Of a DNA stretch of 64,000 bases, positions 8,254 through 63,309 are shown in pieces. A program made the position numbers and the translations under genes. The stretch lies in sequence record MK310183; one strand, 5' to 3'. This DNA comes from Phage NC-B. Under the pieces are notes generated by a model. It was not told the origin of the DNA. It did not search any database and worked only from the letters and a program-made list of their open reading frames with translations. The number at the start of each line of letters is the position of its first letter. Positions within the stretch are counted from its first letter, which is position 1.

Positions 8254-8254
8254 T

Positions 8255-42397: not shown

Positions 42398-44401
42398 TTA
42401 GTGTTTACCTTTACAGTAATCTGAATTACAGATCACCCTGTTTTCTTTGTTCAGTGAGCAAGTTTCTGCATCACGCCACGGAATTTGTTTATAACAGACT
42501 GCACAAAACCCAATTGAAGTCCAGAGGGCTTTTGTAAACTCAGCTGTTCGTTGTCCATCGTAACTGACAACTGTTTTTCGGAGAGAGGTTGACTTTTCTG
42601 GAAATGTCTCCGCTTTCTCAGCGGGTACCTCCTTTGGGGCATTCTTTGGACCATAAACAGAGATGGCATAGGTATCACCACCACGTTTTTCCAAATACGA
42701 ATTAGGAACATCTGCAAGTGTGATATCCCCTGAACGTTTTGCTGAGCTAACCATTACAATCATACGGCTAAGCATACGTTCATCAACACGAACAGCTACT
42801 TCAGGACGACGTGGGTTGGTTGTGTCCACTGCTTTAGTCCAAATATAACCCTCAGACAGCGTAACATTCTTTACTTTGTCTTTGATTTCTTTGGAGCAGA
42901 TATAACAAACGTCTTCACCACGAAGTTTACTCATTTCGTTGTCAAACTCGAAATCAGTCTTGACTTCACCACAGATAGCACATACACCCAAAGGCACATC
43001 TTCTTCCTCTTCAGAGGTTTTAGATAACGCTTCGAAGCATTCTGGATGCCAGTATGCCTGATAAGCAAACACAGCCTTACGAGCATCTTTCCAGTCAATG
43101 TGCTTATCACAACCACCACAGTCACCATGAGAGTGAGACTCCCAGAACTTACGAGTGACTTCTACACCATTCTTAGTGATGAAGGAGTCCTCTGCATCAA
43201 AAGGGATATCATCATCAAAATCAGCAGTAGTGCTTTGAGGCTCCTTATCTGTAGCATCAACAAACAGCCCTGAAGTTAGTACGAGGCGAATCATACTGTC
43301 CACTTCGGAGATACAAGCAATCGTCCCGCGATATACTACCTTTGGGTTTTCAAGAGCCTTAAGATATTCATCTTTGGCTACGTTGTGAACATCCCCTTCG
43401 ACATACTCTTGGGCTTTATCATCGTAGATGTAACCAACCATCTTACCACGATCTGTGTTGTTATAAGCATGGAACTCGTGAGGAATAATATCCACACGAC
43501 CATCACGACGATAAGGAAGACCACGATCGGCAGCCAGTTTGTTCTGGTCTTCAATCGCTTTACGACGACGAATGTCTCCGCTTGTCACGCCGGGCTTGTC
43601 GTCTTTGTTTCCGTAAATGTCGCTTGTGCTGCTGCTTGATTTGTTTGTCTGTTGGTTCTGATATAGAGAGGAGTTCGAGTAATAGCCGCCCCAGCGACTC
43701 GTTATCGTAAAAACCGGAAGCTTGTGCTCCACCTCTTGAACCAGAGTCATACGACTGTTAGACACATCAAAGATATACTCAGTTCCCACTTTACACTCGA
43801 AGTGGTCATTGATACGGTTCTTATGGGACTTAGAACGCTCTAAAATCCACATAAGCATAGCTTCTTCAGAAGCCCCAAACCAATCTAAACCACAACGGGC
43901 TAGGTGGAAAGGACGCTCATCATTACGGATAATGTGAAGCGTGTTGTCTTTAGCATCATGCCAAATCAAAGTGAATGCACCATCCAGTTTTTGGATAGTC
44001 TCTGCTGCTCCAATGGTGTTAATTGAGTGGCAGATGTTTTCACTATCAACTTCGAAACGTTTACTGTCAGGAAGGAGATCTTGATCTAACAGGGTTCCAT
44101 TATGAACCAGAGTGATATCACCGTGAGTAAATGGGTGAGCGTTTCGAGCATTGACAGCCCCACGAGTGGCATGTCGGCTATGACCAACAATCCACGAAGG
44201 AGGAACTACGTAGTTCGTAAGTCCTTTGGTAATATTCTTATATTCTGTCTGGAGCATAAAAGCGTAAGAAGGAAGAGCTTCTTTGTAAGAGAAGACTTGC
44301 TTTTCACCTTTACGCTGACCAAACACACCAGTTGAGTGCTGTCCACGGAAAACACCAGCATACAGAAGTTGGTTGAAAATATCCAAATCTGTTGAGGTCA
44401 T
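42398..44401 (-). CDS. Ntn-hydrolase / class-II glutamine amidotransferase-like protein with C-terminal Cys-rich zinc-ribbon region
   Basis: N-terminal region has GAT-II-like HSRHATRG...NAHPF...LVHNGTL but begins MTST (no Cys2); C-terminal half has several CxxC pairs; 667 aa. Confidence 0.45.
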   Translation of the reverse strand: MTSTDLDIFNQLLYAGVFRGQHSTGVFGQRKGEKQVFSYKEALPSYAFMLQTEYKNITKGLTNYVVPPSWIVGHSRHATRGAVNARNAHPFTHGDITLVHNGTLLDQDLLPDSKRFEVDSENICHSINTIGAAETIQKLDGAFTLIWHDAKDNTLHIIRNDERPFHLARCGLDWFGASEEAMLMWILERSKSHKNRINDHFECKVGTEYIFDVSNSRMTLVQEVEHKLPVFTITSRWGGYYSNSSLYQNQQTNKSSSSTSDIYGNKDDKPGVTSGDIRRRKAIEDQNKLAADRGLPYRRDGRVDIIPHEFHAYNNTDRGKMVGYIYDDKAQEYVEGDVHNVAKDEYLKALENPKVVYRGTIACISEVDSMIRLVLTSGLFVDATDKEPQSTTADFDDDIPFDAEDSFITKNGVEVTRKFWESHSHGDCGGCDKHIDWKDARKAVFAYQAYWHPECFEALSKTSEEEEDVPLGVCAICGEVKTDFEFDNEMSKLRGEDVCYICSKEIKDKVKNVTLSEGYIWTKAVDTTNPRRPEVAVRVDERMLSRMIVMVSSAKRSGDITLADVPNSYLEKRGGDTYAISVYGPKNAPKEVPAEKAETFPEKSTSLRKTVVSYDGQRTAEFTKALWTSIGFCAVCYKQIPWRDAETCSLNKENRVICNSDYCKGKH

Positions 44402-44508
44402 GTTGCCGCCAGCTAATACGATACCACAAATTTTCTAATCCACCTGAAGGGTAAACCCTTTCATCTAATTAACCTTTAAATGCGCCCTTTATCAGAGCGC
44501 CCATTGTG

Positions 44509-45609
44509 TTACAGCAGTCGTTCTAACTGCATTTCCAGATGATCTGGAATATAACCAGTGACATTATCATCACTACTGCCTGATTCACGCATCAATGCAA
44601 ACATGTGACGAATCTCACCAACCGTTGCGGTTCGTGTATTCTCAATCTGGTTAGAGTAATGAGATAAGATTTCTTCATAGACACGGTTAGCATTACCACG
44701 AACATATCCCAAGAAACCATAGAAGTCATTCATGTCACGAAGATTAATCAAGATTTCTCCATCAGAACCTGTCTGATGTACACGAACTCGACCGACCAAA
44801 GTTACAGATCGCTCACGACAGAACAGAATATCTCGAGCAAGACGATACCCTTCAGTGAGATCACTATCTCTTGGGGTGTAGTCTAGAGGTAGATGTTGAA
44901 TCATAGGAGCGAAGCGCAGCTCATTCAACTTCTCAACATAAGCTTCATTGTCTAAATCTGCATATTCAACAGCCAGTTTCTTGAGAACCAAGAAACGATT
45001 GACCAGATTTAGCAGCTGACTCTTTTTCCACTTCGGCTCTGAGATACGGAACTCAACAGAACCAAACTGAGAGAGAGGTAACAGATTAAGGGAGGTGTAC
45101 TTGTCCCAGCTATTAACAAGAGTACGGAAGAAATCTTCCCCATCTCGGTTGAACGCTGATGAAGCATTCATAACTTGAGCTTGAACAACAGCAAAAGCTG
45201 GGCAGAAGTTACTACGGTAACGATGATATCCAGAACATTTGAACATCATCTTTTCATAGAACGTCCACCCAAGAATAACTTTCTTAAGGATATTACTATC
45301 AGCGTCCCGCATATCCATATGAACGTGAGTGGAGCAGCGCCAAGTTCCCTCGGCTCCAGAATCCTGTACCGCTTCACTCAGATTGTTAATAGCACGAAGT
45401 AATTCTTCACCGTTGTAAGGTCGTGAACAAACTAACTCACAACCATCACGAAGAGAGCCGTCTTCAGTACAAACCCACATATCGACGTCAATGTCAGTCG
45501 TACCTTCAACCTCTAACTCAATACCAACACCACACTGAAAGGCAATACTTGGATGCGGTTCAGATAAGCGAGGGTTACGGTATCCAAAAACTTGTGCTAC
45601 GGTTGTCAT
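44509..45609 (-). CDS. Amidoligase-family (glutamine synthetase-like carboxylate-amine ligase) protein
   Basis: GGTGGA RBS; motifs GIELEVEG and RCSTHVHMD fit the amidoligase pattern; 366 aa. Confidence 0.45.
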   Translation of the reverse strand: MTTVAQVFGYRNPRLSEPHPSIAFQCGVGIELEVEGTTDIDVDMWVCTEDGSLRDGCELVCSRPYNGEELLRAINNLSEAVQDSGAEGTWRCSTHVHMDMRDADSNILKKVILGWTFYEKMMFKCSGYHRYRSNFCPAFAVVQAQVMNASSAFNRDGEDFFRTLVNSWDKYTSLNLLPLSQFGSVEFRISEPKWKKSQLLNLVNRFLVLKKLAVEYADLDNEAYVEKLNELRFAPMIQHLPLDYTPRDSDLTEGYRLARDILFCRERSVTLVGRVRVHQTGSDGEILINLRDMNDFYGFLGYVRGNANRVYEEILSHYSNQIENTRTATVGEIRHMFALMRESGSSDDNVTGYIPDHLEMQLERLL

Positions 45610-46232
45610 AATGATTCCACCAACTCTACATTATATGATGACAGGTCTGAAGAAATATGCTTGAACTTCTCCAGAAGGTTTAAAGATTGACGACCATTGT
45701 CGCCATAACCAGCTTCAAGAAGCACGTTTCCAACGTAAGCCCCTTTGTAATAAACTTTTCCATCGACAGGATTGATATAGATGAAACGAGTAACCAACCC
45801 TTCAAACTCTGGATTAAACAGGTTGTACACCAAATCACCCGGAATCGAACGTCCGAGAGAAGGTGGAGCACCACGAAGTTTATTCCCCATCAAGCCTTTA
45901 GCTCGCTGACGAACAGGGTTAATATGGGTCCAGCTCACCATGTTATTACCATGCTGAAGGTATCCTACATCTGGAGACTCCAGAATGAGGTTGTGATCAA
46001 ACACTGGGATATTACTAACAATCTGACGTTCAAACTGACCTTCAGAGTTTTTAGTCCAGCGTTCCGCCTCAAACACTAAAGACATTTCAGCGTCGTGTGA
46101 GTAGTCGTCGATATCAAAGTTACCTTGCTGACGAACATCAAGCACATATAGAGGGAGGTTTTTACCATCAGGTGATCGCTGAGCAATCCATGTTCCACAA
46201 TAATAGTGTTGAAAATCTCTTAACAGGCTCAC
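45606..46232 (-). CDS. Hypothetical protein in amidoligase cluster
   Basis: GTG start 5 nt after AAGGTGA RBS; ATGA coupling to downstream gene; 208 aa. Confidence 0.45.
   Translation of the reverse strand: MSLLRDFQHYYCGTWIAQRSPDGKNLPLYVLDVRQQGNFDIDDYSHDAEMSLVFEAERWTKNSEGQFERQIVSNIPVFDHNLILESPDVGYLQHGNNMVSWTHINPVRQRAKGLMGNKLRGAPPSLGRSIPGDLVYNLFNPEFEGLVTRFIYINPVDGKVYYKGAYVGNVLLEAGYGDNGRQSLNLLEKFKHISSDLSSYNVELVESL
45625..45633 (-). promoter_or_regulatory. Candidate promoter element (variant TAATGTAGA)
   Basis: Minus-strand TATAATGTAGA ~20 nt upstream of amidoligase ATG. Confidence 0.25.
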
Positions 46233-46241
46233 AATATCACC

Positions 46242-47048
46242 TTATACAATCTGGAGTTTAGAGGAGAATTTATCCGCTTCTTTAACATCGTTACTGTTGA
46301 TGATGTTGTGAAGCTTTTCAATTGGAAGGCGAGAGTGAAGTGACATCAATACTTCTATATCACAACCCTGAACAACCTTATCCACTTGCTCATAAACAAA
46401 CTTGCGAGTGGACTTATCACCAATCCAGAAGTTAGAAAGAGAACGATATTCAATACCGTAATCTTTGTAGCGAATGGCAGAAGCCTTTCCGTACAACTCT
46501 TTACGACGAGTGTCTTTATCCATGATCACAGCTGGCAAGGACAGGAAGTAATCACACAACACACCCAACATCATTTGAGTTTGTCGAGTAATCTCTAAAG
46601 TCCCGGAGACACCAAGGTGCACATGACCCCCAGCAGTACGCAAACCTTTATCAGTTGCGACCGGTGAAGGGTTCTTTTGTCCAGTGAAGGCATTGAAATC
46701 AGGAGTACAACCAAATACAAAGGCTGACGGATGGAAAGATTCAAGCTCTTCTGAAGTGAACACATGAGAGCTAATCCCAAGTGCTGCCTCCATGCCACGT
46801 TCATTGAGAACTTTGTTAGTCAGATCAATACCGCGCTGAATGTTATCATCAAACGCTTCAAACCCTTTCTGTGGGTTAATATCAAACTCGGCCAGAACGT
46901 TGTCTTCTTGAAGACGAACATCAGGAGCCAGATCAATTTTATTATCTTTAGAACAGCCCAGCTTACCAGCCACAGAGGTGATAATACCGGAAGCAGTACG
47001 AACAAACATTTCAGGGTCAGAGCCAATAAGGAAAGCGCGCTTAGTCAT
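46242..47048 (-). CDS. Second amidoligase-like protein
   Basis: ATG at 47048 coupled (ATGACTAA); motifs GSDPEMFV and GGHVHLGV; 268 aa. Confidence 0.4.
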   Translation of the reverse strand: MTKRAFLIGSDPEMFVRTASGIITSVAGKLGCSKDNKIDLAPDVRLQEDNVLAEFDINPQKGFEAFDDNIQRGIDLTNKVLNERGMEAALGISSHVFTSEELESFHPSAFVFGCTPDFNAFTGQKNPSPVATDKGLRTAGGHVHLGVSGTLEITRQTQMMLGVLCDYFLSLPAVIMDKDTRRKELYGKASAIRYKDYGIEYRSLSNFWIGDKSTRKFVYEQVDKVVQGCDIEVLMSLHSRLPIEKLHNIINSNDVKEADKFSSKLQIV

Positions 47049-47991
47049 TGTAATACTCCACGAGTTCATCAAAAAGGGAAACAACACGAGCACCAGCTTC
47101 TTCTGGTGTCATTGAGGAAGGTACTGCTTGCATCAGACGTTCGATAAAACTTCGAACAGTAATTCTGTCCATACGCTGATCTAATACTTCTCGCTTGTGA
47201 CCTGCACAAGTTGACCAGAGACGTAACCACTCACTCATACTCTCATAATGGTCAGGGTCTTGGTCACGACGACGTGCCATACGACGGAGAACTCCATCAT
47301 TATGGTTTCGTACATAACCATCTCGGTTGTCATCAACACCGAATACATTCTGAACCCATACGTTTTCAGAAAATTCATCAGTGGTGCAAATTAATGGCAG
47401 AAATGCAATTGCACTCATGTCGCCATCAAAATAAGTCGCTGCTGACTCATCGGTTGAGTCTACGTCATTACTATAACACCAGCGACCAAAGAAGTTACGA
47501 CTTAAACCAGCTAAGCGTAGAGCTAAACCGATTCGTTGTCGCTTAAGCAACTCTTCCTTGTCTTGTACGCCTTCCTGAAGGAACTCCATTCCATTAAAAT
47601 CACCATCCAAATAGCTACGGATGGTCATTAGTCCAGTAAACACCTTGTCTGCTGGATGGTTTCGAAGGTTCACGGCAATGGAGTTCACCGAAGTGACAGA
47701 GAACATATCTTTATAGCAAGACATTGAGTTAAAAATATCTGTTGCTTCAACTAAAGCTCTTTCGATATCTTTAGCTGGCACGCCATAAAAATTGTGAGGC
47801 CAGAAGTTAATAACTTCAATTTCTGAAGTTCTATCACGAAGGCTTGTTCGGTTACGACTTTCACCGTTAATGTCTGTAACAGAATACATGTGCATGCAGT
47901 TAAAAGTACCAAAGCAAGCTCTTCCTTTGAACACTGACTCACCGAAATCCTCTGCCGGTGTTACCGGAGCAATCGATGCGGAGATTGACAT
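47041..47991 (-). CDS. Hypothetical protein in amidoligase cluster
   Basis: AGAGG RBS, ATG; 316 aa. Confidence 0.5.
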   Translation of the reverse strand: MSISASIAPVTPAEDFGESVFKGRACFGTFNCMHMYSVTDINGESRNRTSLRDRTSEIEVINFWPHNFYGVPAKDIERALVEATDIFNSMSCYKDMFSVTSVNSIAVNLRNHPADKVFTGLMTIRSYLDGDFNGMEFLQEGVQDKEELLKRQRIGLALRLAGLSRNFFGRWCYSNDVDSTDESAATYFDGDMSAIAFLPLICTTDEFSENVWVQNVFGVDDNRDGYVRNHNDGVLRRMARRRDQDPDHYESMSEWLRLWSTCAGHKREVLDQRMDRITVRSFIERLMQAVPSSMTPEEAGARVVSLFDELVEYYND

Positions 47992-47999
47992 ATTCGCCT

Positions 48000-49217
48000 C
48001 TATTTATTAAAGAATAGTTTTTCCATAATGGTTTCCCACTCTTCTGAGGGGAGGGTTGAGAACCCGTTTCCGTGAAGCCTGTTTGTCATGCAACTAATAA
48101 TATTGTACATGTTGTAGCTTCGGGTGGATTCTGTTCCATTGTTCCAGTTATAACCGAAAACAATTTTATCGAAGGAGGTTTTATCCGTAGTTACTTCTCG
48201 GATAAACTCAACCAAGAGCGATTTCTCTGTGATGACCGCACGTTCACCATCTGGCAGATTGCAATACTGAGGAAGAAGGATTGGTAAGAACATCGAATTG
48301 TTCACTCGACAATCACGAACACCTTCACTGCGATAGATTAGGCTTGAGAAGTCTTCATCACGCAGGTGTCCTTCACCTTCAGTGTATTCACACTGTCGCC
48401 ACTTGGTCTGGCGAGGCTCAATCATTGTACTACCAACGCCTACTGTATACAGAGACGCTTGGAAAATACATGAATCGTAATCATTCCCCGTTAAAGCAAC
48501 TTGCTCGTTGCCGAACACATCCACTGAAGAGTTAATCAGTCGGCTGAATGCAAGAGAGGCTAAAGGGGACCAGCCTTTCTTATACATCTTGTTCAGCATT
48601 TCATACACAGCAGATTTTTCATCATCTGTATAGAATGTACGATTCAGCATCAGATAGAACAGAGCGCGATCAGCAGGACAACCATCAGTACAAACACCCA
48701 TGAATCCTACTTCATGCCATACCAGACATGAGTCAGAATCTTTATCCATGAATGCTTCAAAGGCTTCCATTACAGCCCTGTCAGTAACATCAGGACGGTT
48801 GTTTTCTTCTGCCCATGTTTCTACATGAGAAGGAGGACGAGGGTCTCCATTCTCCACCCCTTCGCGGAAATATTGAGTGGTAATAGGCTTTTTATCACCA
48901 TAACGTTTTACACCATAAGCGGGAAGGTGTGTACCAGAGTTCCAGATGTACTTAATTTCGGACATAGGCATCATGTTTTCGAGAACGTTCTCTTCAGCAG
49001 TGCCTTGACGAACCATCATATTTTCACTCCACACCTTAATGCGGATATTCCAGCCGTAGTTGCTGTCGTATGTGCAGTAGTAGTCAGGATCACCGTCTTC
49101 ATCTTCACCATAATCACCACCCTGATAGTAACCCGCTTTCAGGAAACCATAACAAGGAGGCCAAACAGTTACAACGTCTTCTGATTCTTTCCAGCTTTGA
49201 AGTGTTACAGGGAACAT
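48000..49217 (-). CDS. Hypothetical protein in amidoligase cluster
   Basis: ATG at 49217 with AAAGAGG RBS (track start 49316 overlaps upstream gene); 405 aa. Confidence 0.5.
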   Translation of the reverse strand: MFPVTLQSWKESEDVVTVWPPCYGFLKAGYYQGGDYGEDEDGDPDYYCTYDSNYGWNIRIKVWSENMMVRQGTAEENVLENMMPMSEIKYIWNSGTHLPAYGVKRYGDKKPITTQYFREGVENGDPRPPSHVETWAEENNRPDVTDRAVMEAFEAFMDKDSDSCLVWHEVGFMGVCTDGCPADRALFYLMLNRTFYTDDEKSAVYEMLNKMYKKGWSPLASLAFSRLINSSVDVFGNEQVALTGNDYDSCIFQASLYTVGVGSTMIEPRQTKWRQCEYTEGEGHLRDEDFSSLIYRSEGVRDCRVNNSMFLPILLPQYCNLPDGERAVITEKSLLVEFIREVTTDKTSFDKIVFGYNWNNGTESTRSYNMYNIISCMTNRLHGNGFSTLPSEEWETIMEKLFFNK

Positions 49218-49227
49218 TTTTACCTCT

Positions 49228-49590
49228 TTACTCTGATACCAGAAGGCCCAGAGATTTGCGAATGTAGTCAATACTACGGAAGTTTCGATAGTTCTCTTGG
49301 AAGCGCATCTTTTCAAACTCTGCTTCCTGAAGCTCTACCTCTGCTGCTTTATATCCCGATAAAGCTAAACTCACCACATCCTGAGGCAAGACATTACGAC
49401 GACGAATAAGATATTTATTCGCTTTTAATTTACCTTGTGCACGAGCCATTTTGGCCTTTGCCGCCTTGATTCCATGAGAAATCCAAAGCAGTTGCTGCTT
49501 CAGGTCTTCCTCGTCCATACCACCTAAATCGTTTGCTACTTTATGCAGCGTAGACAGGTTTACATGGCCTTTAATGGGGCGTAGGTTCAT
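49228..49590 (-). CDS. Hypothetical protein
   Basis: ATG start; 120 aa basic helical protein. Confidence 0.45.
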   Translation of the reverse strand: MNLRPIKGHVNLSTLHKVANDLGGMDEEDLKQQLLWISHGIKAAKAKMARAQGKLKANKYLIRRRNVLPQDVVSLALSGYKAAEVELQEAEFEKMRFQENYRNFRSIDYIRKSLGLLVSE

Positions 49591-49867: not shown

Positions 49868-49999
49868 CCGACGGATGTTCGAGGATTACTCCTCTCCCTA
49901 GCATCGGCCCCATACGGGTAAGATTAAATTAAGTTTAGGTTAGTTGAGCCAGAATAGCTCACATAGCCCTCTGATACTCACAAGGGCTATAGATGTTAC
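49868..49999. repeat. ~130-bp intergenic repeat element, copy A, with 8-bp-stem hairpin
   Basis: Near-identical to 55319-55439; hairpin ATAGCCCT(12 nt)AGGGCTAT at 49963-49990. Confidence 0.6.
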
Positions 50000-50247
50000 T
50001 CTGTGGCTCCGTCGAATCGGAGGATTGCTGTTGGAACAGGAATCACCACCATGTCAATCTCTAAACGGAAGAGATGACCTGTACTTAGCTGAACTGCTGT
50101 TACAGGTTTAGCGATACCCCCAACAGAAGCTGAGGGGATTCGAATAAAGAACTCCCCCGGATATTCAGTTGCACGGAATACATCTCCCGGTGTCATGTCC
50201 TTTACTTGGACAACCAATTCAGGAGGTTGTTTATTAGCAATTTGCAT
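49996..50247 (-). CDS. Hypothetical small protein, PGDVF paralog family
   Basis: 83 aa; motif VKDMTPGDVFRATEYPGEFFIR and C-terminal VIPVP. Confidence 0.45.
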   Translation of the reverse strand: MQIANKQPPELVVQVKDMTPGDVFRATEYPGEFFIRIPSASVGGIAKPVTAVQLSTGHLFRLEIDMVVIPVPTAILRFDGATE

Positions 50248-50480
50248 TACAGACCTTTCTTAGCACGATCTTTGGCAGTTTTGCCGGTGCGAATACGGTG
50301 GGAAACATTAACCAATTCGCCGCCTTCGACGATGGTTACGCTTTTGTTTTTCGCAATATCGAATACAGTCTTCTCTGTACCGCCCAGACGAATCTGTTTA
50401 GGTTCGCTGTGGGTCTGAGTTGATTTAGACCGGAACTGGAACGGCTGACGGATGGCATCAATTGCGCTAACTTTAGACAT
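50247..50480 (-). CDS. Hypothetical basic protein
   Basis: AAGGT RBS, ATG; 77 aa. Confidence 0.4.
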   Translation of the reverse strand: MSKVSAIDAIRQPFQFRSKSTQTHSEPKQIRLGGTEKTVFDIAKNKSVTIVEGGELVNVSHRIRTGKTAKDRAKKGL

Positions 50481-50507
50481 GTTTTATTACCTTACATTAA
50501 AGAGAGA

Positions 50508-50921
50508 TTAAACAACAAATTGGAACGCTTTGTATCCAAACTTGTAAGAGAAGTCGTGCTTGAATTTCACTACACGACCACGATCACGGAAAGATTTCAG
50601 ACGGCTAATAAAGCCAGCCATCGGCTCAGGGTCAATAGGGCTACGAATCTTCATAGCTACAGAGTGCAGCTTGAAGCGTTTACCAGTGCTACAGGCCATC
50701 ATCACATACTCCATACGAGTAGTCCAGATGTTGAGCACCATGCTTGTTTTCTCCGCTGACCAACCAGTCTTGCGGGCGATTTCCTTGTGGACATTAAGCT
50801 CCAAAGGAAGAGGGAATTGCTTGTTGAATGAAGCCGGATATAGCTTGACCAGAAGGTCAATGTTTTCTTTATACGTTAAATAAGCCAATTTCTTGCTTAC
50901 GTTGGGGAATTTCCCAGCCAT
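50508..50921 (-). CDS. Possible ProQ/FinO-domain RNA-binding protein
   Basis: ATG at 50921 (track start is TTG at 50936); weak resemblance to ProQ N-terminal domain. Confidence 0.3.
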   Translation of the reverse strand: MAGKFPNVSKKLAYLTYKENIDLLVKLYPASFNKQFPLPLELNVHKEIARKTGWSAEKTSMVLNIWTTRMEYVMMACSTGKRFKLHSVAMKIRSPIDPEPMAGFISRLKSFRDRGRVVKFKHDFSYKFGYKAFQFVV

Positions 50922-51120
50922 TTTTTGAAGCTCCAAAACAGCGCCGAAAAGAGAGGCGTCATAGTAGCTAAAGGGAGGAGAGAAGAGGGCTTATTTACTT
51001 GCCTTTTTCTGTCCGTTAATGTACCAGATAACTGAGCCATCAGGCTGTCGCTGACCAAAGCCTTTCAGGTTAACCATTTCTTCTTCAGAGTAGGCACGTT
51101 TTCTCACTGAGTTTCTCCTG

Positions 51121-51378
51121 TCAATAGAAGGTGTGTGTAGAGTCATCGTTCATACATAACCAAACGAAGAAGACAATCACACAGAAAGCAATAACACCGA
51201 GAATTGCAAGGATTATAGTGTTAGCTAATGTGATATCTAACACGCTTTGCAGATACATAAAGAACTGTACGACACCACATATCATTAGCACGACACCAAC
51301 AACAATGAGGAGCCAATATGTGCAGAGAAGGGCTGCATCCAATAGTGACACATATTTTGGATGATCTTTACGTTTCAT
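51121..51378 (-). CDS. Small membrane protein (2-3 TM; holin-like candidate)
   Basis: 85 aa, highly hydrophobic with charged N-terminus. Confidence 0.4.
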   Translation of the reverse strand: MKRKDHPKYVSLLDAALLCTYWLLIVVGVVLMICGVVQFFMYLQSVLDITLANTIILAILGVIAFCVIVFFVWLCMNDDSTHTFY

Positions 51379-51634
51379 TAACCTTCTCCACTAAATCCAG
51401 AGTTGCTGATTCAAATACAACACCAACTGGCATATTAGGTGCCATATTACGAACGTACCCACTTTGCATAGACACGGCTCGAGAGTATTCAGAACCGTTA
51501 GAGCTTTTGTTTACCTTCATGTAAAGGGTTTGTTCTTTATCTTCTTTAAGGGTAAAGAAAGAGCCGGGAAGAATCCCCTGAACAGTCAGAGGGATATCTG
51601 CAACATGAGTCTTATTGATAGTAAGAACTGTCAT
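51368..51634 (-). CDS. Hypothetical small protein, PGDVF-family-like
   Basis: AAGGA RBS; motif GILPGSFFTLKEDKEQTLYMKV. Confidence 0.4.
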   Translation of the reverse strand: MTVLTINKTHVADIPLTVQGILPGSFFTLKEDKEQTLYMKVNKSSNGSEYSRAVSMQSGYVRNMAPNMPVGVVFESATLDLVEKVNET

Positions 51635-51637
51635 TGC

Positions 51638-51892
51638 TTATTCCTTAATAATTGCTTCAGCTTTAATAGGAATAACAGCAACATCTTTACGAGGCGCTGT
51701 CGCTCGACCTGTGTTAAGACAGGCTACAAGTCTATGCTCGTCCGCACCCTTAATGCACAAGCGAGTTGAGAACTCGGTAGACAGTAAGATGTACAAATCA
51801 TCATCTTCACTGTTAGAGTACATGAAGCAATCCCCAAGACGCAGAGCGCTGAGTGGTATTGCGTTCTTACTGGCTGGTTTGTTAACTTTCAT
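51638..51892 (-). CDS. Hypothetical small protein, PGDVF paralog family
   Basis: ATG at 51892 with AGGTGG RBS; motif LSALRLGDCFMYSNSEDDDLYIL, C-terminal AVIPIK. Confidence 0.4.
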   Translation of the reverse strand: MKVNKPASKNAIPLSALRLGDCFMYSNSEDDDLYILLSTEFSTRLCIKGADEHRLVACLNTGRATAPRKDVAVIPIKAEAIIKE

Positions 51893-52233
51893 TTTACCAC
51901 CTTTAATTATAGACCAAATAAAAACTATCGGGGAGTGCACTAGCTCTGGGCCACGTTGTGAACATCGGCCTACCTTTCACAACTAATTAGCTAATACACT
52001 CTCCGATAGTTTATAAATAGGGGGGAGGGGACGAATCCTCCCATATCCTATTAATTAATATTGCATGTAAGACCTAACAATCCGATGCTGTAGTGGATAG
52101 CGTAAAACGCTTACCGGCATTAAACCCAGCCCATGAGGGGCTTATGTGAATAAAATGCTCAACATTGAGCGGTTAGTTGATAGGAGATCTGAAGTCCTAT
52201 CTCAAAGGACTCTCGTAAGAATCCTTCACGATA

Positions 52234-52488
52234 TTACTTAGTAATAAAGACTGTCATCTTGTCCAACACCCACCCTAACAGGAGCATGAAAGGGATGAGT
52301 AAGAGGAATAATAACAAAATAGGCCAGAAGAATATTGCTATCCAGATAGAACATTCATCAGGCTTACCACTCCACGGGTTGTGGAAGAAGTTATAGAACG
52401 TATTGGTTTTGAAGCACCACTTAACTACGATGGCTGCTAACCACCAACCAATAACATAAATCAGGAAGACATACGATGCTGTAACCAT
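52234..52488 (-). CDS. Small membrane protein (2-3 TM)
   Basis: ATG at 52488 (track start is GTG at 52500); hydrophobic. Confidence 0.4.
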   Translation of the reverse strand: MVTASYVFLIYVIGWWLAAIVVKWCFKTNTFYNFFHNPWSGKPDECSIWIAIFFWPILLLFLLLIPFMLLLGWVLDKMTVFITK

Positions 52489-52715
52489 TGACCATTCCAC
52501 TGATAGTTGCGAGTGACCACGTTTCCGTGGATAAGGAAGTGCTGTCGGCGAAGTATATCTTTAACGTTGTAATAAGCAGCGTTTCCAAGATGATCTTCTT
52601 TTACAAGCCAACGCAGGTTTTGAATATCAACCAACAACATTTTTACTTGCTGTTGGCATGAAGTCTTAGCCGCTGTTTCAAGTAAAGCTTTTGTATCAGA
52701 ATAATGACCAGACAT
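52461..52715 (-). CDS. Hypothetical protein
   Basis: AAGGAG RBS, ATG; 84 aa. Confidence 0.4.
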   Translation of the reverse strand: MSGHYSDTKALLETAAKTSCQQQVKMLLVDIQNLRWLVKEDHLGNAAYYNVKDILRRQHFLIHGNVVTRNYQWNGQWLQHRMSS

Positions 52716-52716
52716 A

Positions 52717-53043
52717 TCACCACTCCTTACCCTTTGTTGTCACAGAGCCACTACACTGTACACCACGGGAGATAAAGTCATAGCGTGACCAATCACCTTG
52801 TGTTTCCATGTCGCGTTTTGCATAAGCTTTCTCGTCAACAGCACCGCCATTAGAACAAGAAGCGCCAGCATAACGCATATCAATTTCACCGCTAGGAACC
52901 TTCTCCCCGCTATGCCAACGGGAAACACAGACACCTTCTACAGATAATGCACACCACCCATCAGGACGATGCTGTACACAGCCTGTAAGAGCTACACAGG
53001 CGATAAAGATACAGGTTAAGGTAATTACACCACCCCAGCTCAT
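52717..53043 (-). CDS. Predicted lipoprotein (possible superinfection exclusion or spanin-like)
   Basis: AGGAGG RBS; signal peptide with LTGC lipobox; Cys-rich mature region. Confidence 0.45.
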   Translation of the reverse strand: MSWGGVITLTCIFIACVALTGCVQHRPDGWCALSVEGVCVSRWHSGEKVPSGEIDMRYAGASCSNGGAVDEKAYAKRDMETQGDWSRYDFISRGVQCSGSVTTKGKEW

Positions 53044-53061
53044 GATCCCTCCTACGTTGAT

Positions 53062-53137
53062 TGGTGCACCCTACAGGACTCGAACCTGTAACCAACGACT
53101 TAGAAGGTCGCTGCTCTGTCCATTGAGCTAAGGGTGC
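53062..53137 (-). tRNA. tRNA-Arg (anticodon UCU)
   Basis: 76-nt cloverleaf on minus strand: acceptor GCACCCT/AGGGTGC, D-stem GCTC/GAGC, anticodon loop CTTCTAA, T-arm ACAGG-TTCGAGT-CCTGT, 3' CCA encoded. Confidence 0.8.
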
Positions 53138-53146
53138 TAGATTTAT

Positions 53147-53356
53147 TTAACTAAAGATACGAATGGCTACATCGTGACCAATATGACCGGGAACTTTATG
53201 CTGCTCTATTTTCAGACAGCGCTTACAGATACGAGATACACGAGACTCTTTTCTCTCGACTGGAGTGTCTTTAGCGTGAGTGATTTGAAGGTTTTCAGTG
53301 ATCACCCACTCATGTTTACACTCAGAATCTTCGGGCTTTTTCTTACGAAAGAACAT
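53147..53356 (-). CDS. Hypothetical small Cys-containing protein
   Basis: ATG at 53356 with AAGAGG RBS (track start is GTG at 53398). Confidence 0.35.
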   Translation of the reverse strand: MFFRKKKPEDSECKHEWVITENLQITHAKDTPVERKESRVSRICKRCLKIEQHKVPGHIGHDVAIRIFS

Positions 53357-53364
53357 AACACCTC

Positions 53365-53529
53365 TTAGATCAGATCTGTTTTCTTGTGCAGACCACACAC
53401 TTTACAGCGAGAGTAGATACGCAACCCTTGTCGCTCTCTGTCAGTAAGTTTATTTGTGATCGTCAGTTCATAAGTAGAAAGATCTTCCCACTCATGGAAA
53501 TGAAATAGACGTTTGAACCATTTGATCAT
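53365..53529 (-). CDS. Small putative zinc-binding protein (54 aa; tandem paralog) absent from ORF track
   Basis: AAGGA RBS; MIKWFKRLFHFHEW...CKVCG parallels 53539-53685. Confidence 0.35.
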   Translation of the reverse strand: MIKWFKRLFHFHEWEDLSTYELTITNKLTDRERQGLRIYSRCKVCGLHKKTDLI

Positions 53530-53538
53530 AATGATTCC

Positions 53539-53685
53539 TTAGATTATGTCACGACGACTAACTTCACCACACACCTTACACTGGATAACGTAACGTACGC
53601 CCCTTGCATCTCCACAGATCAGCGGACGGGTGTCGATAATCTTCCAATCATGACAATGGAAGACACGCTTTAGCCACTTAATCAT
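53539..53685 (-). CDS. Small putative zinc-binding protein (48 aa; tandem paralog) absent from ORF track
   Basis: MIKWLKRVFHCHDW...CKVCG; TAATATG coupling to upstream gene. Confidence 0.35.
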   Translation of the reverse strand: MIKWLKRVFHCHDWKIIDTRPLICGDARGVRYVIQCKVCGEVSRRDII

Positions 53686-53686
53686 A

Positions 53687-53944
53687 TTAAGCACACGCCG
53701 GTAGTTCAATTAACTGAGGAGTACGACAAGGACCACCTTCATACACACCTACCAATGTTGGCATGTAAGGCCCAGCGCACTGGTATTCATCGAACAGTTC
53801 ATTGTAAGTAGGCTTCCACTTCCAAGCCCACACATAACCCATTCGATCAATGGCAATGTAACGAGTGTTCAGCGGAACCTGCATCATCACATCACCAACT
53901 GCTATTACTTTCGTAATAACTGCTGCTCGGAAGTTTGTCTTCAT
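53687..53944 (-). CDS. Hypothetical protein
   Basis: ATGA overlap; 85 aa. Confidence 0.4.
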   Translation of the reverse strand: MKTNFRAAVITKVIAVGDVMMQVPLNTRYIAIDRMGYVWAWKWKPTYNELFDEYQCAGPYMPTLVGVYEGGPCRTPQLIELPACA

Positions 53945-54249
53945 GACTTTGCAGCCTCCATCATTTTATTCATTTTAGCCACACCTTTACAGATAAGAGG
54001 CATGAATTCATCAGCCAGTTCAGTGGATAAAAGTTCAAGTCCACCTGACTTAATACCATTCACCGCATTCTCAACGTCATCCGACAACAACATCATTGTT
54101 AACCATGGGGATTTTATTCCCACAGTAAAGCCCGGTTCGTACCGTGAGTGACTATAGGTGAAATCTAAATGGGTCACACCGGGCATTTTAGACATTTGAG
54201 CACGGATGACTACCTTAGGATTGCAGCGAGTTGAAGATGAAATTGTCAT
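53941..54249 (-). CDS. Hypothetical protein
   Basis: ATGA overlap; 102 aa. Confidence 0.4.
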   Translation of the reverse strand: MTISSSTRCNPKVVIRAQMSKMPGVTHLDFTYSHSRYEPGFTVGIKSPWLTMMLLSDDVENAVNGIKSGGLELLSTELADEFMPLICKGVAKMNKMMEAAKS

Positions 54250-54497
54250 GGCTTTTTAATCTCAATCTGAACGTTGACGACGAATACAGTATGGTTTGCA
54301 CTGTAAACTGAAGTGCCTATGATTGGCTTATCATCACTGAGGATTTCAACAGCGTGCTCAAGGTTAATCTTCAGATGAAGACGCCCTGATTCCATGAAGA
54401 AATCACCAGCACGTATCTCACCGAACTTAGCTGGCACACCGATAGAGGGTATCAGTATGTCAGTGCGACCTTTACGGTCAAATAAACGATTGAACAT
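54246..54497 (-). CDS. Hypothetical small protein, PGDVF-family-like
   Basis: AGGGG RBS; motif GEIRAGDFFMESGRLHLKI. Confidence 0.4.
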   Translation of the reverse strand: MFNRLFDRKGRTDILIPSIGVPAKFGEIRAGDFFMESGRLHLKINLEHAVEILSDDKPIIGTSVYSANHTVFVVNVQIEIKKP

Positions 54498-54506
54498 ATC
54501 AACCCC

Positions 54507-54716
54507 TTATGTAATATCAACCTCAAACCAACAGGTAAGAGCTTTTTCATTGTTGCGTTTTGGCTCAAAGGATTTAACAACCGATAATACTCGGCGCTGT
54601 TCTCCATCAAACCAGATAGTTTCATCTTTTTCAGGGAGTAGGTTGTGTGCAGCACAAACGATTTCACCTAGCACAACCTGTCTGCCATCTTGCTTACGAA
54701 CTAAACGAATGTTCAT
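54507..54716 (-). CDS. Hypothetical protein
   Basis: AGAGAGG RBS, ATG; 69 aa. Confidence 0.4.
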   Translation of the reverse strand: MNIRLVRKQDGRQVVLGEIVCAAHNLLPEKDETIWFDGEQRRVLSVVKSFEPKRNNEKALTCWFEVDIT

Positions 54717-54765
54717 AACAACCTCTCTTGTTAGTTTAAGTAAGAGTTATCCCTTAATTAAAACA

Positions 54766-54790
54766 ACAAAGGCCACCCCTAAGGGCAGCC
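54766..54790 (-). terminator. Rho-independent terminator
   Basis: Minus-strand GGCTGCCC-TTAG-GGGTGGCC hairpin followed by TTTGTTGTTTT. Confidence 0.5.
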
Positions 54791-54796
54791 TCTTAT

Positions 54797-55000
54797 TTAA
54801 GCGCAAGCACTACGCAGTTTGTTATTCAAGAAGCGATCTTCTGCATTATACAGGAATGCATAGAACAACTCTTTAGCTACATCCCGATCGCAATTGAGAC
54901 ATTTAGAGATCTGTAACAACAAACCATCACGACTATTAGGATGGTCAATTATCGCAAGACGAATAATCTCACGAATACCAATGTCATGCTCAGCCGCCAT
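54797..55000 (-). CDS. Hypothetical protein
   Basis: ATG at 55000 (track start is GTG at 55012); 67 aa. Confidence 0.35.
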   Translation of the reverse strand: MAAEHDIGIREIIRLAIIDHPNSRDGLLLQISKCLNCDRDVAKELFYAFLYNAEDRFLNNKLRSACA

Positions 55001-55130
55001 AGAACCAATCACCCTGACGTTTACGAATGTTAGTTGTCAGACGAAGCATGGCAGACTCAATCTTCAGAGCACCATTTGCTACTGCATCCATACGTTCAGG
55101 ACGGTTCATACGTTTGGTTGTCTTTTTCAT
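54990..55130 (-). CDS. Small basic ORF (46 aa) absent from ORF track
   Basis: AGAGAGAG RBS; overlaps downstream start by 11 nt. Confidence 0.25.
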   Translation of the reverse strand: MKKTTKRMNRPERMDAVANGALKIESAMLRLTTNIRKRQGDWFYGG

Positions 55131-55318
55131 AACGTTCTCTCTCTTTATTGATGGAGGCAGGATTGCCAGTTAATATAAAGGGAAGCCCTACACGTTAAGG
55201 CTTCCGCTTGTACAAACTGTCGAGAACTCTCTACCCCTAGATTGTTCTCTATCCCAAACCGATACATACCCCTACATATCGGAATGCCATTCGAAAATTA
55301 ACAGGTTTTAGTCTATCA

Positions 55319-55439
55319 CCGGATGTTTGAGACAAGTCTCTCCCTAGCGGTGAGCCATATGGCGTTGAGATTATATTTAATTGAGGAACATCCTCACATA
55401 GCCCTCTGATAAACACAAGGGCTATAAGTCGATGTTACT
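55319..55439. repeat. ~130-bp intergenic repeat element, copy B, with hairpin
   Basis: Near-identical to 49868-49999 (shared GGATGTT.GAG, TCTCCCTAGC, CCATA.GG, CTCACATAGCCCTCTGATA..CACAAGGGCTATA, GATGTTACT). Confidence 0.6.
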
Positions 55440-55659
55440 TGTTGGTTAGTCGTGCGTTAGGTACAGGTCTGACTACAGTCGATTTACACTCAGAATCACG
55501 CTTACCTGTATAAAGGTTAACAAAATAACTTTTGTTTTCACCATAACACGCAGTACGCATGTAATATTGAGTTTCGTTATAGTTAAACTGGAAGACTTCA
55601 CCCGGATTTAGATCACCGAGAGTTACAACCTCTGGTGTATTATCAATATCAATTTTCAT
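55435..55659 (-). CDS. Hypothetical small protein, PGDVF paralog family
   Basis: GGTGG RBS; motif LGDLNPGEVFQFNYNETQYYMR, C-terminal VVRPVP. Confidence 0.45.
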   Translation of the reverse strand: MKIDIDNTPEVVTLGDLNPGEVFQFNYNETQYYMRTACYGENKSYFVNLYTGKRDSECKSTVVRPVPNARLTNK

Positions 55660-55890
55660 TTAACCACCAATATTAGTCACTTGAACATCAAATACAGGGA
55701 TAACTTCATGATGTTCCTGTAACTGGAATAGTGTTCCCTGACGAAGACCAACCACACGATGCATATCATTCAGGCAGGTGTCTGTCTTTAGATAGAGGTG
55801 TTCAGAGTTAGTTGGTAGACGGAATACATCACCCGGACGTAGATCGCTGAGTTTTTTAGTAACAACTAAAGATGGGAGATTAATTTTCAT
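55660..55890 (-). CDS. Hypothetical small protein, PGDVF paralog family
   Basis: Motif LSDLRPGDVFRLPTNSEHLYLK, C-terminal VIPVFDV; TAATG coupling. Confidence 0.45.
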   Translation of the reverse strand: MKINLPSLVVTKKLSDLRPGDVFRLPTNSEHLYLKTDTCLNDMHRVVGLRQGTLFQLQEHHEVIPVFDVQVTNIGG

Positions 55891-56078
55891 TTGATTAACA
55901 CCAAATCAGTACGACGTTCGAAGGAAGGGGAGGATTCACCATTCCACTGAACAAGATAACAGAGAACACCATCAATCGTTGTTCTCCGACGGATAACACC
56001 TGTAACAGTTCCACCAACAAGGCGAACGGTGTCGCCAACGGTAAATTTAACTTTTGAGCGCATCTCCTGTTTCCTCAT
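55887..56078 (-). CDS. Hypothetical small protein
   Basis: Internal ATG chosen; start uncertain (track 56216 overlaps upstream gene). Confidence 0.25.
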   Translation of the reverse strand: MRKQEMRSKVKFTVGDTVRLVGGTVTGVIRRRTTIDGVLCYLVQWNGESSPSFERRTDLVLIK

Positions 56079-56352
56079 TCTGGCGTTTAATTTCTTCAGT
56101 GAGTTGCTTATTAAGATCTTGAATACGCTTAATCTCCCAACCCAAAGAAGCCAAACGATCGTTACGTGCTTCGATTTGTTCCTGCATTTTAAGTAATTTG
56201 GAACGAACATCAGCATTAAAAACTTCTTCTTGCTTAAGAAGGAACTCGTAACGACGCTTCCAGCTTGCTGATTTATTTCTTAAAATAATAAATCCTAGAG
56301 TAGAAACAGTTACAGTGAGTACGAAAAGGAACTTATAAACCTCTAAAGACAT
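56047..56352 (-). CDS. Membrane-anchored coiled-coil protein
   Basis: AAGAGGA RBS; N-terminal TM helix then charged coiled coil; 101 aa. Confidence 0.45.
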   Translation of the reverse strand: MSLEVYKFLFVLTVTVSTLGFIILRNKSASWKRRYEFLLKQEEVFNADVRSKLLKMQEQIEARNDRLASLGWEIKRIQDLNKQLTEEIKRQNEETGDALKS

Positions 56353-56990: not shown

Positions 56991-57018
56991 ATAAAAAAGC
57001 CCCATCCGAAGACGGGGC
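56991..57018 (-). terminator. Terminator-like hairpin 1 of 3
   Basis: Minus-strand GC-rich hairpin followed by TTTTTTAT. Confidence 0.4.
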
Positions 57019-57769: not shown

Positions 57770-57979
57770 TCAATCAATTAAACTAAATGACTTCCAACTA
57801 CGTGTAATTGCTACACGTTCGCCATCAAAGAGAACACTTACAGAGATCAGTTTACCGCGACAACTGGATACCGTGGTAATTCGTCCGGTTAATGCCTTAC
57901 CTTTATTCAGGTAGTGATAGCGGACACGACGTCCTAACAAACGAGTAGCTTTCTTCTCTAACGTGCTTAAGCTGGTCAT
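57770..57979 (-). CDS. Hypothetical protein
   Basis: ATG; TAATG coupling; 69 aa. Confidence 0.4.
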   Translation of the reverse strand: MTSLSTLEKKATRLLGRRVRYHYLNKGKALTGRITTVSSCRGKLISVSVLFDGERVAITRSWKSFSLID

Positions 57980-58421: not shown

Positions 58422-58528
58422 GGTGTTTATCTCTTTTTAGTTTCTTTGATTAGCACACTGAATCAATGCACTAGTAAAAGAAAAAGGCGCTACCCTTTCG
58501 AATAGCGCCTCATGTGTTTTATTGTTGG

Positions 58529-60344: not shown

Positions 60345-60373
60345 ATTATGAATCATCCTGTTTAGCGTGTCAA
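60345..60373 (-). promoter_or_regulatory. Sigma70-like promoter P-A (-35 TTGACA, 17-bp spacer, -10 CATAAT)
   Basis: Read on minus strand; A-tract upstream of -35. Confidence 0.5.
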
Positions 60374-60512
60374 CCACTTTTTAAATCTTTTTCTCGTCTA
60401 TTCTTTCGAATGACCAGTTAATCGCGTATTGGATTAACAAGATTGTAAGCGGTTGCGCTTAACTTTCTGATTCGTATTTTTAAAGAGCGGTGTTTCTTAC
60501 TGCTTAGTGAAC

Positions 60513-60540
60513 ATTCTATCAGAACGTTTCACCTTGTCAA
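60513..60540 (-). promoter_or_regulatory. Sigma70-like promoter P-B (-35 TTGACA, 16-bp spacer, -10 TAGAAT)
   Basis: Read on minus strand; A-tract upstream of -35. Confidence 0.5.
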
Positions 60541-60672
60541 CTCTTTTTATCGTCTTCTTTTTATTCTCTTCCCTTATCTCGCGTGAATCTTTGCGAAAGG
60601 GCTAGACGATAAATTGTTAAAGAGCGGGGCACTAAGTGCCGGATGTTTTAGGTCATCGCTGACCATGTGCAC

Positions 60673-60700
60673 ATCTTATCATAGTGATTCGACGTGTCAA
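60673..60700 (-). promoter_or_regulatory. Sigma70-like promoter P-C (-35 TTGACA, 16-bp spacer, -10 TAAGAT)
   Basis: Read on minus strand; A-tract upstream of -35. Confidence 0.45.
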
Positions 60701-63122: not shown

Positions 63123-63309
63123 TTCATTAATCCTTTCGGTTGATGTGAACTACAAACTACGATTGCAACTATATATTAAAGGAAAAACCTGTCAACTACT
63201 TATTTTCAAACTATTTCATAACTCACTGAATATAAAAGGAATTTAATTTACTAAACTTACTTGTTCAGAGATACAGCTTACCAAATAGATGTTATTTTAT
63301 AACACTTAC

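Follow-up and report, generated by a model that had tools for sequence, protein, structure and literature searches.

Six small genes of a phiEco32-like coliphage belong to one widespread phage mini-protein family with a predicted SH3/KOW-like barrel fold

We examined a 64,000-nucleotide stretch of DNA from phage NC-B (sequence record MK310183; the whole stretch is called the window below), in which a first-pass annotation had marked a family of at least six small paralogous proteins between positions 49,996 and 55,890. We found that the six genes, called A to F here, are paralogs that diverged long ago within one widespread family of phage mini-proteins, which we name N4 gp21-like, and that each protein is confidently predicted to consist of one domain of ~75 amino acids (aa) with a five-stranded SH3/KOW-like beta-barrel fold. 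All six open reading frames (ORFs) are present at the coordinates proposed, all lie on the minus strand, and they encode proteins of 74-88 aa; the motifs that had been quoted for them are exact. They are listed below with their matches to PHROGs, their hhalign probabilities against an alignment of 129 family sequences and their ratios of nonsynonymous to synonymous substitution (dN/dS) relative to orthologs, and for F with the predicted local distance difference test score (pLDDT) of its AlphaFold 2 (AF2) model.

Paralog A: 49996-50247, minus strand; 83 aa; phrog_6570-type, E = 4.8e-22, with cross-hits; hhalign 99.2%; dN/dS 0.12-0.27
Paralog B: 51368-51634, minus strand; 88 aa; phrog_12612, E = 6.7e-30; hhalign 97.8%; dN/dS 0.16-0.30
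Paralog C: 51638-51892, minus strand; 84 aa; phrog_7832, E = 6e-21; hhalign 99.2%; dN/dS 0.06-0.12
Paralog D: 54246-54497, minus strand; 83 aa; phrog_22099 only; hhalign 77.7% as a single sequence; dN/dS 0.05-0.09
Paralog E: 55435-55659, minus strand; 74 aa; phrog_9955, E = 3.9e-20; hhalign 99.6%; dN/dS 0.37-0.43
Paralog F: 55660-55890, minus strand; 76 aa; phrog_16423, E = 3.7e-26; AF2 pLDDT 88.9; dN/dS 0.19-0.30

The claim of paralogy was borne out by shuffled pairwise alignments, profile cross-hits, hidden Markov model (HMM) searches and hhalign, unambiguously for five of the ORFs, whereas D is divergent. In Smith-Waterman comparisons evaluated with 2000 shuffles per pair, F was the most "central" member and was linked to all five others (z = 9.8 with A, 5.5 with B, 9.7 with C, 5.7 with D and 12.1 with E; for the F-D pair, 1 of the 2000 shuffles scored as high as the observed alignment), and the pairs A-D, B-E and B-D were not significant alone. 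A, B, C, E and F each match a PHROG of their own (E = 1e-20 to 1e-30) and cross-match one another's PHROGs, mostly near full length, as do F with phrog_7832 (1e-10) and A with phrog_12612 (7.9e-7). When the 468 window ORFs were searched with an HMM built from A, C, E and F, the top match outside the training set was B (E = 0.0024), and D was not significant. Once iterated over early-region sequences from six related phages, the profile found A, B, C, E and F at E-values of 1e-19 to 2.5e-24 (3.8e-21 for B), and the first two sequences below the inclusion threshold were D (E = 0.004) and its ortholog in phage SU7 (0.009). Finally, when we used hhalign to compare the 129-sequence family alignment with every minus-strand ORF of 45-200 aa in the 18-64 kb part of the window (127 ORFs), the six candidates took the top six places, five of them at probabilities of at least 97.8% and D at 77.7% (P = 1.9e-5), and the next-best ORF followed at P = 0.012.

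The similarity is therefore significant by alignment, the property whose absence the first-pass annotation had named as refuting the family (z up to 12, profile E-values to 1e-24). We consider refuted the idea that the similarity is due to chance or composition, or that the ORFs are not genes: it can appeal only to the weakness of some pairwise comparisons (A-D, B-E, B-D), and is contradicted by these scores, by the clean separation of the six from other ORFs, by dN/dS values well below 1 in all six and by the confident fold prediction. The estimate of "at least six" holds for the six members themselves and does not extend to a seventh, as neither HMM searches nor hhalign of the 127 minus-strand ORFs found further divergent copies among the other small window ORFs; at the sensitivities used, the window contains exactly six.

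A plain HMM gave D E-values of 0.004-0.024 only, but a profile of D orthologs matched the 129-sequence family alignment with an hhalign probability of 95.3% (P = 2.2e-8) and a score of 40.9, compared to 9.9 +/- 2.0 (maximum 18.5) in 150 column shuffles. Moreover, D is the positional counterpart of phiEco32 gp109, as placed relative to the tRNA-Arg gene, and gp109 is a clear family member whose best match among the six is D. By these comparisons, D is a divergent member of the family. The tRNA-Arg gene itself (anticodon TCT; window 53062-53137, minus strand) separates the B/C group from the D/E/F group at the centre of the early cluster, and its position is conserved in most relatives examined, although it is absent from the ES17 annotation.

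A multiple alignment of the six proteins recovered a pattern common to the family: M-K-I, about 10 variable residues, L-x-D-L-x-P-G-D-V-F, a short turn and L-Y-M-K-T, followed by a loop of variable length, V-x-L-x-T-G and V-I-P-V. We define the family by a length of ~68-95 aa and by the motifs M-K-[IV], L-x-x-G-[DE]-x-F, Y-[MIL]-[KR]-[TVI], [VI]-x-L-x-[TSN]-G and V-x-P-[VI], a set found in full in four paralogs (A, C, E and F) and in part in B and D. A, E and F carry all motifs, though A starts with M-Q-I; B has G-S-F-F in place of the usual motif and no V-x-P-V; D, the most divergent, retains G-D-F-F and L-H-L-K in its N-terminal part and has lost L-x-T-G and V-x-P-V. Thus, the C-terminal V(I/R)PV motif that had been ascribed to all six is present in A, E and F and, as VIPI, in C, but not in B (MPVGVVF) or D (VFVVNV). 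The strongly conserved columns (M1, I3, L14, L17, G20, F23, Y33, M34, V47, L49, G52, V63, P65 and V66) are largely hydrophobic or glycine, as expected for core and turn positions. Conservation is lacking at positions 4-11 (the N-terminal arm), 26-31 (a turn) and 37-45 (a loop); the loop varies in length, with long insertions in A and C after the Y-M-K-T strand. Variation among 13 orthologs of F falls on the same positions that vary across the family (mean information content 0.94 versus 1.93 bits; Mann-Whitney p = 1e-4).

Structure prediction, which had been suggested as a follow-up to the motif family, yielded a confident five-stranded SH3/KOW-like barrel. The AF2 model of F, computed with the 129-sequence alignment, has five strands, a pLDDT of 88.9 and a predicted template modelling score (pTM) of 0.74, and both domains of a tandem member were predicted with the same fold; F and this tandem member are the proteins on which the fold was modelled. 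A Foldseek search of the PDB gave no match at E <= 1e-3. The best matches were domain I of EF-P, FeoA, eIF5A, L2 and the KOW domains of Spt5, with further structural resemblances to the C-terminal domains of DtxR/IdeR, Tudor domains, CarD, the C-terminal domain of UvrD, RapA, HspQ and VapX. Since no PDB match reached that threshold, the models indicate a clear fold class without a close solved relative, and a resemblance that is at the level of the fold only.

The differences from these known barrels are considerable. The family has no detectable sequence relationship to EF-P, eIF5A, L2, FeoA, DtxR/IdeR, Tudor, CarD, UvrD, HspQ or VapX; its members lack a KOW motif, are standalone and acidic to neutral, and have no Foldseek match at E <= 1e-3. 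We rejected membership in the KOW and translation-protein SH3-like domains (EF-P, eIF5A, L2, Spt5/NusG), for want of a KOW motif, a Pfam match or a close structural match, and membership in the bacterial SH3b families (SH3_3, SH3_4, SH3_5), because no member has a Pfam SH3 match. An SH3-like antitoxin of the VapX type, as judged by an adjacent VapD toxin and sequence similarity to VapX, was likewise rejected.

The family extends well beyond the window. An exhaustive HMMER search of 1.84 billion representative proteins with a profile of the window members returned 442 clusters (at 50% identity) with E <= 1e-3. The best 149 of these 442 include 131 proteins 60-100 aa long, 12 with two domains in tandem (130-170 aa) and 4 of greater length; one protein of 167 aa (P0037) combines the family domain with a C-terminal KTSC domain (PF13619), and a tandem pair lies on a 183-kb metagenomic contig. 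The top match, P0015 (3353 aa, 20 matching stretches), is a perfect-repeat low-complexity protein and was discarded as a false positive, and P0024, a lysozyme with 11 SH3_3 repeats, was rejected as a relative because its match is only cumulative and covers family positions 8-39. Gp21 of phage N4 is a member (E = 2.8e-11 with an HMM made from Gordonclarkvirinae sequences only). Like PHROGs 6570, 12612, 7832, 9955, 16423, 7431 and 8365, it is a single domain of 70-90 aa that gives full-length HMM matches and has the G-[DE]-x-F, Y-M-K-T, L-x-T-G and V-x-P-V motifs of the window paralogs; N4 differs in that the 16 kb examined there contained a single copy, with other neighbouring genes. A Foldseek comparison with predicted viral structures retrieved N4 Gp21 and many Gordonclarkvirinae proteins, with relatives in phages of Escherichia, Serratia, Proteus, Morganella, Vibrio, Klebsiella and Erwinia.

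A word-index homolog search with F and D found close orthologs only, being too insensitive for relatives at 25-35% identity, so that the exhaustive profile search was needed; similarly, tblastn with the family consensus found almost only Gordonclarkvirinae, and the taxonomic spread therefore rests on the HMMER, Foldseek and N4 HMM results. Meaningful Pfam matches were found for 0 of 129 members, no match to the family was found in NCBIfam, PADLOC or, by sequence, the PDB, and a literature search that included the PHROG identifiers and N4 gp21 found no paper mentioning it. The PHROGs split the family into at least seven groups (6570, 12612, 7832, 9955, 16423, 7431 and 8365) that look unrelated to one another, all of "unknown function". 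Proteins identical to these or nearly so were already deposited as hypothetical, the family existed without a name and its fold is a common one, and nothing here is categorically new; what we add is the unification of the family, its fold, the anatomy of its conservation, its extent (442 clusters, the tandem fusions and N4 gp21) and the membership of D.

We compared the six genes with close relatives, using SU7, ECBP2, Bas86 and Bas88 for orthologs, presence or absence and dN/dS. The 7-kb region around the genes is ~94% identical to Escherichia phages IME267, HC-25922, Bas87 and MLP3; with the four phages used for comparison, identity is 90-94% over the 87-99% of the region that can be aligned. 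These relatives are podophages of the Gordonclarkvirinae, Suseptimavirus by the taxonomy lines of their records and kin of phiEco32, and by sequence the window is that of a Suseptimavirus-like Gordonclarkvirinae podophage, a phiEco32-like coliphage. In the records of the relatives, all genes of the region are annotated "hypothetical protein". The six are real genes under purifying selection, with dN/dS = 0.05-0.43 for all of them against their orthologs in the four phages. They are tightly packed in an operon-like manner, with overlapping or abutting starts and stops: the start codon of A shares one base with the stop codon of ORF 50247-50480, which lies upstream, B comes after C with a 3-nt spacer, the stop of D overlaps the next start, the ATG of E directly abuts the TAA of F, and the ATG of F overlaps the TGA of its upstream gene (ATGA). 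The longest ORF for C reaches a GTG at 51940, yet its orthologs begin at the ATG.

Copy number and divergence vary among related phages. The A, B, C, D and F lineages are present in 4/4 close relatives; E has no counterpart in SU7 and Bas86, and its orthologs in ECBP2 and Bas88 are only ~60% identical. ECBP2 carries one additional family member adjoining its F ortholog (8092-8331 of the ECBP2 locus). By HMM count, the Gordonclarkvirinae genomes examined have 4-11 copies each, in three syntenic clusters, with 4-6 in the Suseptimavirus group (the D lineage being additional) and 8-11 in Kuravirus and Nieuwekanaalvirus; the phiEco32 members are genes 95-98, 104, 109 and 113-115. Positional counterparts in Kuravirus and Nieuwekanaalvirus have only 25-36% identity, compared to the much higher identities reported for Gordonclarkvirinae core proteins (PMC9965538).

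The first-pass annotation had also placed the genes in an early region, and this is supported by the leftward strand, by sigma70-like promoters upstream and by a layout like that published for SU10 and phiEco32. Published work on phiEco32, SU10 and YF01 assigns genes of this kind to the early class. A scan of the window sequence gave the following promoters.

Three strong sigma70-like promoters: 60345-60700, minus strand; 10-11 of 12 positions match the consensus; upstream of the leftward early genes
Fourth sigma70-like promoter: 63168-63195, minus strand; from the sequence scan

The six genes lie 4.5-10.7 kb downstream of the promoter cluster at 60345-60700. This layout reproduces that of SU10, in which genes 69-125 are early and three sigma70 early promoters lie in the interval from gene 120 to gene 121 (PMC4281155). 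In phiEco32, the leftward cluster at the right end belongs to the experimentally determined early class, whose genes are described as the most diverse part of the genome and as likely to act in host takeover (PMC8948821, PMC9965538). The minus strand is enriched in terminator-like hairpins (26 compared to 12.3 expected), with strong ones at 58484-58511, 56999-57018 and 54768-54793 (minus). We infer from this arrangement that the six genes are expressed early in this phage.

Several other genes of the region deserve mention. Just 3' of the paralogs along the direction of transcription are larger minus-strand ORFs (window ~42400-49300) that match genes annotated in SU7 and phiEco32 as glutamine amidotransferase, amidoligase, COOH-NH2 ligase and ATP-grasp-like, a conserved enzyme cluster. 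A second family of small paralogs occupies window 53147-53709 (minus) in the early region: the proteins of ORFs 53365-53529 and 53539-53709 (54-56 aa) share W-[FL]-K-R-[LV]-F-H-x-H-[ED]-W ... C-K-V-C-G, and a third ORF, 53147-53398, has a related C-K-H-E-W ... C-K-R-C pattern in a C-terminal part that is probably of the same family; the tryptophan and cysteine motifs of the 54-56 aa proteins suggest zinc-ribbon-like mini-proteins. Two further minus-strand ORFs have KOW/Tudor-like patterns, 55887-56216 (VGDTVRLVGG..GVI...YLVQW in the C-terminal ~58 aa, equivalent to SU7_106) and 57770-57979 (LLGRRVRY...GRITTV...VLFDGE). Neither was detected by the profile of the N4 gp21-like family with HMM or hhalign, and they may be other small-barrel proteins.

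What might such a set of barrels do? The explanation that we favour, with somewhat less than even confidence, is that the variable arm and loops of a stable barrel give each paralog a surface of its own, with which each copy stoichiometrically binds a different host protein early in infection. The barrel would be the stable scaffold, with G20, F23, Y33, M34, V47, L49, G52, V63, P65 and V66 forming its core and turns, and the binding surface would be made up chiefly of the loop of variable length that follows the Y-M-K-T strand, together with the N-terminal arm and the beta1-beta2 turn, all of which would differ between paralogs. The distinct host protein bound by each paralog could be a housekeeping factor or an immunity component, and would be neutralised or redirected. 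Because each paralog would bind a different host protein, the multi-copy array would be a repertoire of binders and not a dosage device.

A role in host takeover or anti-defence, which the first-pass annotation had considered typical of such an expansion, is plausible. It has circumstantial support from the early position of the genes, their variable copy number between close relatives and their fast divergence between genera, and further support from the combination of a conserved core with variable surface segments, from a Gad2 neighbour and from a possible link to PinA. The Gad2 neighbour was found on a 122-kb metagenomic phage contig, where a distant family member (P0020) lies directly upstream of a gene with a Gad2 (anti-Gabija) domain; another 79-aa gene precedes P0020, and RNA ligase, pentapeptide-repeat and DenV-like genes lie in the same region. 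In addition, Gordonclarkvirinae are reported to be highly resistant to the defence systems tested (PMC11990801).

The possible link to PinA came from phage T4. PinA is an early phage protein that binds a host protein, as an inhibitor of the Lon protease. Its gene in the T4 DNA examined is:

T4 pin gene: 46897-47382 of the T4 DNA examined; encodes PinA

Residues 13-63 of T4 PinA (PF10465) align to family positions 7-65, and profiles of the PinA family gave hhalign probabilities of 78-88% (P = 1.7e-5 to 2.9e-6) with a score of 32.0, compared to a maximum of 14.6 in 150 column shuffles. No member of the N4 gp21-like family was found in the first 99 kb of T4, PinA being the only lead there. PinA differs in its length of 161 aa and in a conserved C-terminal region that has no counterpart in the window family, and we rejected membership in PF10465, which no family member matches, only the N-terminal ~50 residues of PinA being alignable. 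The PDB copy that we searched contained no PinA structure. PinA is thus a possible remote relative, a lead and not an established homolog, and although it is the sole functional lead, no function can be transferred from it.

Two phage counter-defence proteins with predicted SH3-like domains lend further circumstantial support, by an analogy of principle only, drawn from published descriptions. Nip of phage phi3T associates in a complex with the host immunity protein SpbK and blocks its defence, and Orf65 of Enterococcus phages inhibits or overcomes a type IV restriction enzyme (PMC11984713, PMC11322646). Both differ from the window family, Nip in being 279 aa long with two SH3-like domains and an HU-like dimerisation domain, and Orf65 in being highly acidic and in having further regions. 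Searches of the window family for anti-defence homologs gave no matches in PADLOC (defence proteins), NCBIfam or Pfam (which includes Gad2 and others), no dedicated anti-defence library having been searched.

A number of points weigh against a repertoire of host-protein binders. The PinA link is post hoc, from a scan of 295 T4 ORFs; some of the other T4 ORFs, spurious ones among them, scored as well as PinA did as a single sequence, and the Y-M-K-T strand is left out of the alignment. The Gad2 neighbour is one isolated case, and the defence resistance of Gordonclarkvirinae may stem from DNA modification genes instead. Because the orthologs are under purifying selection, without detectable positive selection, these data do not demonstrate an arms-race signature, and the presence of A, B, C, D and F in 4/4 close relatives fits housekeeping in the phage cycle as well as an accessory role. 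The SH3/KOW fold is also typical of proteins that bind RNA, ribosomes or RNA polymerase (RNAP). Lastly, the mechanism is wholly inferred, and no family member has an experimentally known function or partner.

The fold bears directly on the alternative that stands up best, although we think it unlikely, namely that the proteins are regulators associated with RNAP, the ribosome or other nucleic-acid machinery, and use a KOW/Tudor/SH3-like barrel as do EF-P, L2, Spt5/NusG, CarD and the C-terminal domain of UvrD. Such regulators would tune transcription or translation at the early-to-middle switch, in a phage whose own sigma factor (gp36) and gp79 reprogram host RNAP. SH3-like domains of translation proteins and RNAP-binding Tudor/KOW domains, such as the C-terminal domain of UvrD bound to the RNAP lobe, are indeed the best structural matches, and remodelling of host RNAP is known for phiEco32-like phages (PMC12276001). 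However, the proteins are mostly acidic to neutral, with a median isoelectric point (pI) of 5.7 across the family, and have no conserved basic patch, and 4-11 diverged copies per genome fit poorly with a single conserved target in the machinery. With this median, and with a pI > 8 in just 13% of members, protein binding is likelier than nucleic-acid binding.

The persistence of the lineages raises another alternative, which we consider improbable and place behind the first: the proteins could serve the phage's own biology, as small accessory factors of assembly or replication, or could act against competing phages in superinfection exclusion. Five of the six lineages occur in 4/4 close relatives with low dN/dS, the single N4 copy lies among genes 15-32 and adjoins an endonuclease and an ATPase, and one homolog (P0039) is located within a replication module, among genes for D5 primase, helicase and DNA polymerase. 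Nevertheless, the window genes lie in a region that has been described as varying most among related phages and been predicted to act in host takeover, and their divergence between genera is extreme compared to that reported for core genes. Moreover, no membrane segments or signal peptides were visible in the sequences (grand averages of hydropathicity near zero or negative; no dedicated signal-peptide tool was used).

We rate lower again the possibility that the paralogs act jointly, with the adjacent pairs B-C and E-F forming hetero-oligomers that have one function. This would agree with the tight coupling of the genes in both adjacent pairs, with the arrays of 3-4 adjacent copies in Kuraviruses and with the tandem two-domain structure of at least 12 of the top 149 homologs. 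On the other hand, A and D are solitary, F is kept where E has been lost (SU7, Bas86), and the AF2 model of a tandem fusion, with a pLDDT of 84 but a pTM of 0.51, has no confident packing between its domains. We had considered the tandem fusions as a sign of a fixed dimer, following the Rosetta-stone idea, and this pTM left the idea unsupported.

Returning to the repertoire of host-protein binders, a far-reaching form of it can be stated, which we regard as doubtful. In this form, the N4 gp21-like barrel would be an unrecognised binder scaffold in wide use among virulent phages, with a stable core and a hypervariable loop and arm, duplicated to up to ~11 copies per genome or fused in tandem, of which each inactivates a different host protein (components of defence systems or, if the PinA link is real, proteases such as Lon), and the arrays would be a main reason for the broad resistance to bacterial immunity reported for Gordonclarkvirinae.

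Host-takeover and counter-defence functions have repeatedly been found in multi-copy families of tiny early genes, most of which remain unannotated. Here, several "unknown" PHROGs, N4 gp21 and hundreds of metagenomic clusters are merged into one family with a confident predicted fold and a clear pattern of conserved core and variable surface. The family is also experimentally tractable by deletions and pull-downs, because the BASEL phages Bas86-Bas88 infect an E. coli K-12 derivative with restored O-antigen. If the genes prove dispensable, the result would be an ordinary improvement of annotation; if the proteins are target-specific binders, they would form a natural collection of small inhibitors directed at E. 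coli proteins, and the family would merit a curated entry.

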